A program made the translations under genes and the position numbers. A DNA stretch of 64,000 nucleotides from Candidatus Uhrbacteria bacterium (GTDB lineage: Bacteria; Patescibacteriota; Patescibacteriia; JACQRZ01), in the NCBI GenBank assembly GCA_016206155.1, contig JACQSC010000004.1:147591-211590 (forward strand), read 5' to 3'. Of the stretch, positions 4,018 to 8,225 are shown one piece after another. Position 1 is the stretch's first letter, and each line of letters starts with the position of its first letter. A model generated the notes under the pieces. That model did not search any database. It worked only from the letters and a program-made list of their open reading frames with translations, and was not told the DNA's origin.

Positions 4018-4202
4018 TGTAAGCGAAGTCGATCGCACGCGCCCGTTGAGCGTCTGCCCCAAGCCCCGCATGGGGGATGGAGGTACAAATATATTGGGGG
4101 CAACAGTACGCTCAACGGGCCCCATTTCATTCTATGGCGTGATTCAATCCCTTCTTTGGCGATTGATTTTTTTTATCTCTTTGCTAGAGTATCTCATATT
4201 GA

Positions 4203-4274
4203 GCCGAGGTAGCTCAGTGGTAGAGCGAAGGACTGAAAATCCTTGCGTCGGGAGTCCGATTCTCCCCCTCGGCA
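4203..4274 (+). tRNA. tRNA-Phe (anticodon GAA).
   Basis: Acceptor GCCGAGG/CCTCGGC, anticodon loop CTGAAAA, T-loop GAGTCCGATTCTC. CCA is not encoded. Confidence 0.85.
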
Positions 4275-4282
4275 ATGAGGAA

Positions 4283-4310
4283 ACCTCCGAAGGGAGGTTT
4301 TTTCATTGGC
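4283..4310 (+). terminator. Rho-independent terminator after tRNA-Phe.
   Basis: AAACCTCC-gaag-GGAGGTTTTTTC: hairpin followed by a T-run. Confidence 0.7.
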
Positions 4311-4419
4311 GAGGGAGCGACAGAACTGCTTCTGTCGTGTGGAGGATTGAAGACCCCATTTTTTTATTCTTTTCCAGTAAACAGGCGATAAATTCTTGTG
4401 CTCAGTCAATCGTATTTCT

Positions 4420-4461
4420 GACTCTCGTGAGAGAGTCTCCACTTTGGTTTCCCAAAGTGGA
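4420..4461 (-). other. Two consecutive hairpins just 3' of the 16S rRNA: a 10-bp stem tccactttgg/ccaaagtgga and gactctc-gtga-gagagtc. They are likely processing or termination structures.
   Basis: Inverted repeats seen directly downstream (on the minus strand) of the 16S 3' end. There is no U-tract. Confidence 0.35.
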
Positions 4462-4634
4462 TCGACTAGTATCGAGATGTTACTCTCGATTGTGTCTCCC
4501 TAGAAAGGAGGTGATCCACCGACAGCTTCCGCTACCGGTGCCTTGTTACGACTTAGCCCTTGTTACCAATCTTACCCTAGGTCCTCGAACGAGGCACTTC
4601 AGGTACTACCGGCTCCCTTGGCTTGACGGGCGGT

Positions 4635-5568
4635 ATCGGGATCGTTCTCTTGTCGTAACAAGAACGTCCCACACCACTGGGCAAACGGTTTTCCCGTACC
4701 CTAGCGGTTCCTATAGTGCTTTTTTGAAAAAGCTCGCATCTGGTCGCGAATATGCAGGACAGCATTAAACCCTTCATCAGTAAGATGTTTTTTCTCTTTA
4801 ATCATAAAACATGCTTGACGAAAGAGTGAATAGACATCCTTCTTCTTCCCTTGAAGTTTGTGCTTGTCGAAGAAGGGGATAACAAACTGACAAAGATCGC
4901 GAACACTGCCTACTTTATACTTCGCGTGAGGCGCCCAATCATATCGCTTGTAGTGGAGATCATACAACGATCCGCATCCGATTGTTGCTTGGATGCGTTC
5001 TAATATCTCCCGATCGTCAATGCGTAGTTCAATCTCGAAAAGAGGACGAAGGTCCACTTTTCGTTTCATGGTTGTATGTTTCGATGCACCAATACAGAAA
5101 CATCCTTCGCCATCAACGAATCCAGCGACATAATTGGGGTCGAGCTTTTGAGCACTAAAGGTTCGGTCCTTCTCCGATTGCGTATCGGATACTATGACCT
5201 CTGCTGACTTCTTGCATTGCGTCGACATATCGTTACCGCTCTGTCTTAATTTCTCAGTGTTAGTATACTACAATTTTATAGTACCCCCAAGAAATACAAT
5301 ACAAGATCTCCCTGGGTCATGTCTTGTCCCGTTTTCCTTCATCTCCGGCATTCTTTACATGCGTACGTTTATTAATGAAAAGATGACTTCTCCCTATACA
5401 CGCGGGATCGTCACGTACCCATGCCTCAACAAATGCTCAAGCTGAAAGATGCTACTTTCATTCTCCACATGTATCCTCGCGGATACATGCTATAATTTCG
5501 CTTCAAAGAATCTTTTCTTTCTTTGGTGTGATTTTCACACACTGGCACAAAACACTACCAGGCGCTCC
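4635..5568 (-). mobile_element. 16S intron 1 (~934 nt, at about E. coli position 1391/1392) carrying a single-motif LAGLIDADG homing endonuclease.
   Basis: The exon sequence GACGGGCGGT at 4625-4634 resumes as GTGTACAAAATCTGAGAACGTATTCACCG at 5569. The intervening sequence has no rRNA similarity. Confidence 0.8.
4701..5228 (-). CDS. LAGLIDADG homing endonuclease, single motif (YVAGFVDGEGCF), encoded in 16S intron 1.
   Basis: 175 aa with a canonical LAGLIDADG block near the N-terminus, on the same strand as the rRNA. Confidence 0.85.
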   Translation of the reverse strand: MSTQCKKSAEVIVSDTQSEKDRTFSAQKLDPNYVAGFVDGEGCFCIGASKHTTMKRKVDLRPLFEIELRIDDREILERIQATIGCGSLYDLHYKRYDWAPHAKYKVGSVRDLCQFVIPFFDKHKLQGKKKDVYSLFRQACFMIKEKKHLTDEGFNAVLHIRDQMRAFSKKHYRNR

Positions 5569-5877
5569 GTGTACAAAATCTGAGAACGTATTCACCGCAC
5601 CATGGCTGATGCGCGGTTACTAGCGATTCCGGCTTCATGGAGGCGAGTTGCAGCCTCCAATCCGAACTGGGGTCACTTTTTAGGGATTAGCTCCGTCTCG
5701 CGACTTGGCGACCCGTTGTGGTGACCATTGTAGCACGTGTGTAGCCCAGGGCGTAAGAGCCATGCTGATTTGACGTCGTCCTCGCCTTCCTCCCCGTTAA
5801 CCGAGGCGGTTTCTCGTGAACAATGCAACACGAGATGAGGGTTGCGCTCGTTTGAGGACTTAACCCGACATTTCACA

Positions 5878-5909
<32 letters not shown>

Positions 5910-5985
5910 CTCAGCGTTCCCTTGCGGGCACTTTCCTGTTTCTAGGAAATTCGCTGGATGTCAAACCCTGGTGAGGTTCCTCGCT

Positions 5986-6022
<37 letters not shown>

Positions 6023-6174
6023 AGATTCCCGTCAATTCCTTTAAGTTTTAGCCTTGCGGCCGTACTTCCCAGGCGGGATGCTTAACGAGTTATCTTATGT
6101 AAACGGCACTGAAAGGGTCGATACTTCCAATACCTAGCATCCATCGTTTACGGCGTGGAATACGCGGGTATCTA

Positions 6175-7176
6175 CAATTATTGTTACGCTCCTGACAAAT
6201 GTCAGAGCGACTCGATTTCACTCGAGTTCCTCATATCGCTAATGAGGTTCGGACTATCTCATCACCTCTTGAAATTGAGGAAGTTGATATACGATCGCTG
6301 GCTGCCGATATGATTCAATCATTAGATTGAGAATCGACTGCTTCTCATAATCAAACCAAAACTTTGAATGAAGTGTTGCTGTCACACCCTTCACAAAGCC
6401 GATGCGTTCCTGAAAAAGCCGTATATCCCTTTCCGTCTCAATTTTTATTTTCCTGTCACATGGCACTTCTCGCGCACGAATACCATTCCACCGAAGAAGG
6501 GTAAGGTAATCCGTGCGAAGTTGTTTATGATTACATGCGAGAAAAATCGTCCGAATAAGCCGGAAGGTTTTTCTCTCATTCTTCCCTCGCCGAAATGCGG
6601 GATATAAACTAACTCCTCCATCGCAACTAAAAGCTGCCTGAAGAAAGTTACGATCATATCCACTGCTTCTCAGCTGAAGCACTGGAATGGTGGCATGCGG
6701 TATACTTCCGTCGGAGAATGACAATGTCCGAAATCCTCCGAACCGCTGAACCAAAGTATTACCGATCTCTTTCGAGTTAACAATCGCCTTAAAGAGACCG
6801 TCTCGCGTCATTCAGAGACGTACTCTCTGTGCATCAAGTGAAAATGCGCCGATCATACTTGATCGAAAAAGATCAACTAAACTTTTTGATTTACAGGCAA
6901 AGTATATTCGCCAACTTTCCTTCTTCTTTGGGGAAACACATCCGTCGGTATAAAGCAAACCGAGAAGTGTTGCCAGGTCTTTTCCAATTGAGGTGCCCGA
7001 CATATAGTCTCTGAGGAGCCCCTTCTTTTTAATAAGGGTTTCCTGCTGATTGACTGTACGAAACGCATTGTTACTCCTAGTATTGTACCATGAGTAGCGT
7101 TCGATTTCCAGTTGTTCCAGCATATAGTCGGGTTTTTTTCCTCTCGTCACCGAGAGGGTGGACCAGATACCATTTG
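6175..7176 (-). mobile_element. 16S intron 2 (~1.0 kb, in the 785-806 region) carrying a double-motif LAGLIDADG endonuclease ORF.
   Basis: Exon GGGTATCTA ending at about 6174 resumes as ATCCGCTTCTCTCCCCACGCTTTCG at about 7177. Confidence 0.8.
6254..7150 (-). pseudogene. Double-motif LAGLIDADG homing endonuclease split by an in-frame TGA at 6812-6814. Motif 1 is LLGLLYTDGCVS and motif 2 is LQAAFSCDGGVS.
   Basis: ORFs 6812-7150 and 6254-6811 are contiguous in the same frame, separated only by TGA. Each half carries one LAGLIDADG motif. Confidence 0.6.
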
Positions 7177-7573
7177 ATCCGCTTCTCTCCCCACGCTTTC
7201 GTCCCTGAGCGTCAGAACTGTTCCAGTACCCTGCCTTCGCTTTTGGTGTTCCTGCCGATATTAAAGCATTTTACTGCTACACCGGCAATTCCAGGTACCT
7301 CTCCCAGCCTCTAGCTCGATAGTATCGTGCGCGGTCCTGATGTTGAGCACCAGGATTTAACACACGACTTACCGGGCCGCCTGCGGACCCTTTACGCCCA
7401 ATAAAACCGGATAACGCTTGGACCACTCGTATTACCGCTGCTGCTGGCACGAGTTTAGCAGGTCCTTATTCGTACGGTACACTCAGAACTTGTTCCCGTA
7501 CAAAAGCAGTTTACGCCCCGAAGAGCTTCTTCCTGCACGCGGCGTCGCTCCCTCAGACTTTCGTCCATTGGGG

Positions 7574-7604
<31 letters not shown>

Positions 7605-7901
7605 TAGGACAGTGTCTCAGTTCCCATGAGGCGGGTCATGCTCCCACACCCGCTACTCGTCGTAGCCTTGGTAGGCCGTTACCCTACCAACTAGCTGATG
7701 AGGCATAGGCCCCTCTTCAAGCGGATTGCTCCTTTACATGAGAATGTCTTATGACCCCTCATGACTATCGGGAATTAGCTCGCCTTTCGGCTAGTTGTGC
7801 CCGACTCGAAGGTAGGTTACCAATGTGTTACTCACCCGTTTGCCACTAGCGCTATCCAGTATTGCTACCGAATAACGCCCGTTCGACTTGCATGCCTTAG
7901 A

Positions 7902-7940
<39 letters not shown>

Positions 7941-8225
7941 TGTTTATGAGTTTGTTGACTCTTGTTTTCTTTGTTGAAGTTTCAATGAAACTTCAGGAAT
8001 TGACTTGCACGTATACAGCACGATCCCGCTTGCGCAGTATCGTTCCGTATACAAATTTATCGCCTTTTTACTGTCAAAGAACTGTTCCTTTTTCCACTGT
8101 TTAGTGTAGAAAAAAGAGAGAAGCCATATTCTTGTAGACGGCCTCACTCTTTTTTCCAAAACCGCTTTACTGTATTGTAAAAGGGGAGTGTTTGAAGGCT
8201 GTTTTGTTGATAATTTACAGCCCGT

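Follow-up and report, generated by a model that had tools for sequence, protein, structure and literature searches.

[quoted passage not shown] A later survey gives in its text a figure of 48% for CPR 16S rRNA genes containing insertions, and states that LAGLIDADG_3 ORFs in CPR are found in 16S rRNA gene insertions only, 35 of 39 lying in group I introns (Tsurumaki et al., 2024; PMC11270868). According to the same text, ORF-containing, degenerate, and ORF-less forms share sites in CPR rRNA genes, the endonucleases encoded by the introns are predominantly single-domain, and some of them have been split in two by a stop codon (Tsurumaki et al., 2024). [quoted passage not shown]

The locus described here combines a CPR host, a 16S rRNA gene, a group I intron, and a PF14528-type protein, and its endonuclease gene is interrupted by one in-frame TGA. 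It probably represents a homing endonuclease that was inactivated recently within a group I intron that would still be able to splice, a reading drawn from comparison with intact relatives and from the predicted ribozyme.

A 16S rRNA gene with two insertions

The window, that is, the whole 64-kb stretch of DNA that was analyzed, derives from a host named Candidatus Uhrbacteria (CPR) at NCBI and holds a 16S rRNA gene on its minus strand (Rfam RF00177, 1213 bits). This gene is broken by two insertions, a group I intron and a group II intron (Table 1), and its true 3′ end lies at position 4505, as marked by the anti-Shine-Dalgarno sequence GGATCACCTCCTT at 4505-4517 and by AAGTCGTAACAAGG at 4541-4554. 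The Rfam SSU model claims a full match (1-1533) that ends at 5505, an end that is forced, with the last ~130 model positions laid on group II intron sequence (5505-5568). Standard rRNA models thus misplace the 3′ end of this 3.4-kb gene, and automatic rRNA annotation would mis-end it. The group I intron divides the 785F/806R primer site, and surveys with primers placed there are therefore expected to miss this organism.

No 23S or 5S rRNA gene lies within the window; the tRNA genes closest to the 16S rRNA gene are those for Phe (4203-4274) and Ile (2850-2926), both on the opposite strand, and the rRNA genes of this genome appear to be unlinked. On the plus strand, opposite the group II intron and the 3′ exon of the 16S rRNA gene, there is a 240-aa ORF (4046-4768) that automatic annotation might report as a gene, although it is almost certainly spurious.

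The group II intron begins with GGAGCG instead of the canonical GUGYG and ends in AU. It encodes an intact LAGLIDADG_1 protein and no reverse transcriptase, and fits the "16IS9 / position 1400" type as set out in the text of the CPR survey (Tsurumaki et al., 2024; PMC11270868). A group II intron with a LAGLIDADG_1 gene is thus of a kind already described for CPR bacteria.

Table 1. Features of the interrupted 16S rRNA gene, with ORF-less introns from the same family. Positions refer to the window.
Feature	Position or contig	Strand	Basis and remarks
Complete 16S rRNA gene, 3443 nt	4505..7947	-	RF00177, 3′ end markers, spliced length
16S exons	7947-7177, 6174-5569, 4634-4505	-	Mature rRNA of 1507 nt
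Group I intron, 1002 nt	6175..7176	-	RF00028 and junctions read from the sequence; after E. coli U788
Internal guide sequence GGUAUCU-GGUCC	7160..7171	-	Intron bases 6-17; read from the sequence, conserved in the family
P3 5′ strand CCCGAC	7127..7132	-	6/6 Watson-Crick pairs with GUCGGG at 6996-7001
P8 5′ strand CACCUC	6990..6995	-	6/6 pairs with GAGGUG at 6263-6268
Endonuclease codons 1-63 (MSGTSIGK...RVRL)	6815..7003	-	LAGLIDADG motif 1, catalytic Asp20; aligns with 115 relatives
In-frame TGA, codon 64	6812..6814	-	Column mostly Gly in relatives; same in Logan contig
Endonuclease codons 65-249, 185 aa	6254..6811	-	Motif 2, Asp128; NCBI hypothetical protein HY623_02810, 288-kb contig
3′ ribozyme core and tail	6175..6262	-	J8/7-P7′ (GAUGAGAUAGUC), P9, two more hairpins, omega-G; Rfam alignment
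Group II intron, 934 nt	5568->4635	-	RF02001 and RF01998; between E. coli C1397 and A1398
LAGLIDADG_1 protein, 175 aa, intact, single-domain	ORF 4701-5228	-	Pfam 1.2e-18
ORF-less introns	Ga0209541_10026745 (L025), Ga0209542_10001890 (L026), Ga0209210_1000465 (L044), Ga0209210_1000601 (L048)		JGI contigs

The group I intron and its family

A group I intron match covers 6229-7186 (RF00028, full model 1-253) and scores 53.2 bits, above the gathering threshold of 50. With slashes marking the splice sites, the junctions read ...GCGGAU(7177)/C(7176)...UUG(6175)/UAGAUACCCGCG, and the spliced 16S rRNA would have the exon-exon junction ...GCGGAU-UAGAUACCC...; since the exons, once joined, give back the sequence GGAUUAGAUACCC that is universal in the 790 loop, the intron occupies exactly 6175-7176, after U788 of E. 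coli. The group I hallmarks are present (GGAU/C...UUG/UAGAUACC), the 5′ exon ending in U and the intron in G (omega-G, position 6175). A preliminary description of this DNA had recognized an insertion of about 1.0 kb in the 785-806 region, the coordinates of which prove correct to the base and which lies in the 790 loop, and its estimate of a 3.4-kb gene for a 1.5-kb product agrees with the 3443 nt and 1507 nt found here. Its label of "intron 2" is not retained, this being the first intron in transcript order.

The internal guide sequence pairs with both exons: GGUCC pairs with the 5′ exon GGAU in P1, with a U.G wobble at the splice site, and GGUAUCU matches AGAUACC of the 3′ exon without a mismatch to form P10. 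Compensatory changes are found in the family for P3 (TCTGGC/GCCAGA, TCCTGC/GCAGGA, and TTTGGC/GCCAAA) and P8 (TGACTC/GAGTCA, TACTTC/GAAGTA, and TATCTT/AAGATA), and the stem of the P9 hairpin (CCUCAU-UAGCGAU-AUGAGG in the window) is predicted by RNAfold in 12 of 12 family members, again with compensatory changes. Pairing is complete in the window for P1, P10, P3, P8, and P9, the last three of which covary across the 12 family loci; judged by this pairing, the ribozyme core looks intact and under selection. The endonuclease ORF (7003->6254, minus strand) fills the loop of P8. Its probable start codon is the ATG at 7003-7001, which has one base in common with P3′ (the first of that strand), and its TAG stop (6254-6256) falls in the J8/7-P7′ core sequence GAGAUAGUC.

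A protein search returned more than 150 relatives of the endonuclease, of which 115 full-length sequences (at least 236 aa, most 240-300 aa, and up to 318 aa) were used for comparison; PF14528 is precomputed on nearly all of the relatives. Related loci from GTDB representative genomes, the junctions of which were located by an anchor-based search, are 16S rRNA genes with the same junction in 14 of 14 cases, and their hosts are assigned to Parcubacteria, Doudnabacteria, Vogelbacteria, Zambryskibacteria, Saccharibacteria, and unclassified Patescibacteria. Eleven of the relatives' introns were recovered whole, 10 with an intact ORF. In the eleventh, locus L013 (JASEJL010000031.1, intron at 56-1018 of the locus), the ORF is disrupted by several frameshifts, in its N-terminal as well as its C-terminal part, and the ribozyme core is nearly identical to that of the window, including the GAGATAGTC variant of J8/7-P7′.

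Scanning of metagenomes with a guide-sequence pattern yielded 46 loci, approximately 38 of them unrelated chance matches and eight in 16S rRNA genes. Four of the JGI contigs (L025, L026, L044, and L048) carry one and the same 326-nt group I intron, which has no ORF and occupies the site of the window intron. Its guide sequence (GGTATCTGGTCC) and core are of the type seen in the family, and its P8 is a short hairpin (CGUCCGCAAAUUGCGGACG) in place of the ORF. The existence of ORF-less introns in the family indicates that the ribozyme is evidently not generally dependent on a protein or maturase. At one site, then, the family includes intact, single-stop (the window), multiply frameshifted (L013), and ORF-less states.

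Some variation was seen among the other loci. The 1306-nt intron of L010 (MHWN01000019.1) is enlarged by an additional ~300 nt that lie in its P6 region, ahead of the P7 core, and the junction of L005 (JAGGSE010000125.1), GGGAUU/C...AUG/AGAUACC, seems to lie one base further 3′ (after U789), or its boundary is ambiguous. Two contigs with the same intron family, L014 (CAYZPO010000080.1) and L015 (CAIPPE010000259.1), are binned as Gammaproteobacteria and Methylococcaceae. Spread across phyla was considered for these and rejected, because their 16S exons are CPR-like, 79-80% identical to the CPR 16S of the window versus 68-72% to that of E. coli, and the contigs are probably mis-binned CPR.

The interrupted endonuclease gene

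LAGLIDADG motif 1 (LLGLLYTDGCVS, 6932-6967) and motif 2 (LQAAFSCDGGVS, 6608-6643) share one frame, the sole interruption of which is the TGA at 6812-6814, read on the reverse strand and followed directly by an ATG. Both catalytic acidic residues are present, in LLGLLYTDG (Asp20) and AAFSCDGG (Asp128), at columns that are invariant in the family. An AlphaFold2 model built on the joined sequence (codons 1-249, stop bridged) reached a pLDDT of 93.4 and a pTM of 0.91 and adopts a pseudo-dimeric fold, alpha-beta-beta-alpha-beta-beta-alpha twice over, with two complete LAGLIDADG domains, the helices of which span residues 8-17 and 117-127, and a C-terminal helical extension. The best PDB folds retrieved by Foldseek were E-DreI, bI3 maturase, I-Tsp061I, I-AniI, and I-DmoI, and the best 50 listed matches were all LAGLIDADG enzymes. 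As modeled, the joined ORF is a monomeric two-domain LAGLIDADG endonuclease, and the uninterrupted frame of such an enzyme is broken here at codon 64. Residue 64 lies between strands 61-63 and 71-76 of the model, within the hairpin that beta3 and beta4 form in the N-terminal domain; domain 2 starts near residue 108-117, its LAGLIDADG helix beginning at residue 117.

Pfam finds only one LAGLIDADG_3 domain in the family, whereas the model shows two, and the N-terminal fragment of the window protein scores 21 bits against LAGLIDADG_3, slightly below the 22.5-bit cutoff. A sequence search of the PDB with the family profile detected no relative, giving only spurious matches to designed "Pizza" propeller proteins.

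In this genome TGA serves as a genuine stop codon. It terminates 19 of 53 long non-overlapping ORFs, the ORFs covering 81% of the window under code 11, and the Pfam profiles of Maf, HAD, PRPP synthetase, and 6-phosphogluconolactonase reach to within ~1-30 residues of the terminal TGA; for Maf, profile positions 1-187 of 187 align with residues 12-197 of 198. Decoding under code 25 or code 4 was rejected on this evidence. The preliminary description had therefore been right in treating TGA as a normal stop elsewhere in the window, as it had been in recording a double-motif LAGLIDADG gene with both motifs in one frame and one in-frame TGA. Its picture of two halves divided by that codon holds insofar as this is the only interruption, but the division falls, on the AlphaFold2 model, within the N-terminal domain and not between domains.

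The preliminary description had also proposed a search for relatives lacking the stop. All 115 full-length relatives, 50-63% identical to the window protein, are continuous across its site, and none has a stop in the codon-64 column. The residues found in this column are Gly (77, or 67%), Ser (14), Arg (13), and Asp (6), and a single substitution turns any of the codons GGA, AGA, CGA, and TCA into TGA. At highly conserved columns the window protein departs from its family in 1 of 57 (at least 95% conserved), 2 of 80 (at least 90%), and 4 of 91 (at least 80%), compared with mean departures of 1.07, 2.8, and 4.4 for intact members. By this comparison the gene shows no accumulated damage apart from the TGA codon, which speaks for a recent inactivation.

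The evidence is best accommodated by the first of three readings offered in the preliminary description, a freshly inactivated endonuclease in an intron that could splice. The starting point would be a mobile group I intron family at position 788 of 16S rRNA genes in CPR/Patescibacteria. After transcription, P1, P10, and the P3-P9 core would form, the intron would excise, and the essential 790 loop would be rebuilt, while an intact enzyme would cut intron-less 16S rRNA genes at the site and the intron would be copied in. In the window copy, one base change, most likely from GGA (Gly) to TGA, would end translation at codon 64. The resulting 63-residue product would retain only the first catalytic LAGLIDADG helix, and its beta-sheet would be incomplete; with a single catalytic helix, the enzyme is almost certainly dead on the structural model, and the intron would splice but no longer move. 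The window copy thus probably stands at the first step of the homing endonuclease cycle of gain, degeneration, and loss. Splicing competence, loss of activity, and recency are the inferred parts of this reading, and because no relative more than 63% identical was present in the databases searched, the codon that preceded the TGA and the date of the mutation are likewise inferred and not observed; an exact-pattern search of JGI metagenomes, in which the stop position was left free to be any codon, returned no near-identical allele.

The same observation can also be held against inactivation, in that a remaining ORF as conserved as in intact relatives fits continued selection too. It is unlikely, though not negligibly so, that residual function persists through UGA read-through by a near-cognate tRNA or through reinitiation at the AUG, either of which would supply a little full-length enzyme or two assembling fragments and so a low, non-toxic endonuclease or maturase activity. 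The lack of excess changes at conserved columns, the retention of both catalytic Asp residues, and the ATG directly after the stop would all suit such an arrangement. However, a stop found here in none of the 115 relatives is not a conserved recoding site, and the RNA flanking the TGA folds like shuffled sequence (z = -0.04), with no stimulatory structure near the codon; on these two grounds a programmed read-through or recoding site was rejected, and the local read-through entertained in the preliminary description found no support. The ATG is uninformative as a reinitiation signal, Met being a normal variant in the column after the stop (11 of 115 relatives), and inspection by eye revealed nothing resembling a Shine-Dalgarno sequence ahead of that ATG (position 6811). 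The break moreover splits a beta-hairpin within one domain, and the ORF-less introns of the family argue against a general need for a maturase.

It is quite unlikely that the TGA stems from an error in sequencing or consensus calling, or reflects a minority allele, and that the real gene is an ordinary intact endonuclease. The genome is metagenome-assembled, which leaves room for such an error; a single substitution error, though, seldom persists into a short-read consensus. Against it stands a Logan contig, SRR12113419_381958, an independent assembly from the raw reads of SRR12113419 that is recorded in two samples and is 100% identical to the window over 1062 nt (7206->6145), TGA included. 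Given this identity the TGA is not an artefact peculiar to one assembly, and a read-level correction that removes it, envisaged in the preliminary description as a refutation, has become less likely. At least one stop-fragmented CPR endonuclease is thereby reproduced in an independent read assembly, a point left open by the published survey.

A gene that is still alive despite its UGA, whether by low read-through or as pieces of 63 and 185 aa made from the UGA-AUG junction and reassembling across the split beta-hairpin, is very unlikely. Were this so, the reassembled pieces would act as an endonuclease or splicing helper and constitute a natural split LAGLIDADG enzyme.

It is highly improbable that the intron came from a lineage in which UGA encodes Gly (code 25, as in Gracilibacteria or Absconditabacteria), where the gene was intact, and that the TGA became a stop in the new host. 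The alignment of the stop with a mostly Gly column (77 of 115 relatives) would be expected of such an origin, yet there is only one TGA in 249 codons, the close relatives are all uninterrupted under the standard code, no code-25 relative was found, the host reads TGA as stop, and the change from GGA to TGA needs one substitution. A deliberate two-subunit endonuclease, with two ORFs forming a heterodimer, was the remaining proposal of the preliminary description and can be set aside as scarcely credible: there are two adjoining same-frame ORFs with one LAGLIDADG motif each, but the split lies off the domain boundary, cutting the N-terminal beta-sheet and not the interdomain linker and leaving a 63-aa N-terminal fragment without its own beta4 and alpha3, which the C-terminal fragment would carry, the ATG is an ordinary variant, no relative is so organized, and other short relatives end at different points.

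Comparison with known systems

With recent inactivation as the preferred reading, the window would offer a clean and well-bounded case of the earliest decay of a homing endonuclease, in which one nonsense codon is found in a family-typical gene and a ribozyme that looks intact. The Goddard-Burt cycle provides the obvious frame of reference, in that one family at one site shows intact, single-stop (the window), frameshifted (L013), and ORF-less (L025) members. That cycle is, however, an evolutionary model and not a molecular family, and the states seen here come without reconstructed order or timing.

Archaeal rRNA-intron LAGLIDADG enzymes sit in bulge-helix-bulge introns and not in group I introns. 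Among them are I-DmoI and I-Tsp061I, which together with the chimeric E-DreI resemble the window enzyme in their pseudo-dimeric fold (Foldseek E 2.5e-8 to 2e-6, probability 1.0), and the window enzyme is likewise encoded by an rRNA intron. It differs from all three in that sequence identity is only 14-17% and its ORF is interrupted.

Like the giant sulfur bacteria, the window presents a bacterial 16S rRNA gene with several introns and with LAGLIDADG genes; the phylum is different, and self-splicing, which is reported from experiment in the former, is here predicted from sequence (Salman et al., 2012). The closest resemblance is to the CPR 16S introns as they appear in the text of the CPR survey, with which the locus shares a CPR host, a group I intron, a highly conserved region of 16S, and a PF14528-type endonuclease (Tsurumaki et al., 2024; PMC11270868). 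The window family departs from the picture given there in being modeled as a two-domain monomer, this copy is not individually described in that text, and no correspondence between its sites 16IS5 / 16IS10 and position 788 can be derived from the wording of the paper. A stop-broken endonuclease in a CPR 16S group I intron is thus an ordinary and already described stage of decay, to which the present case adds the support of an independent assembly and a predicted two-domain monomeric structure.
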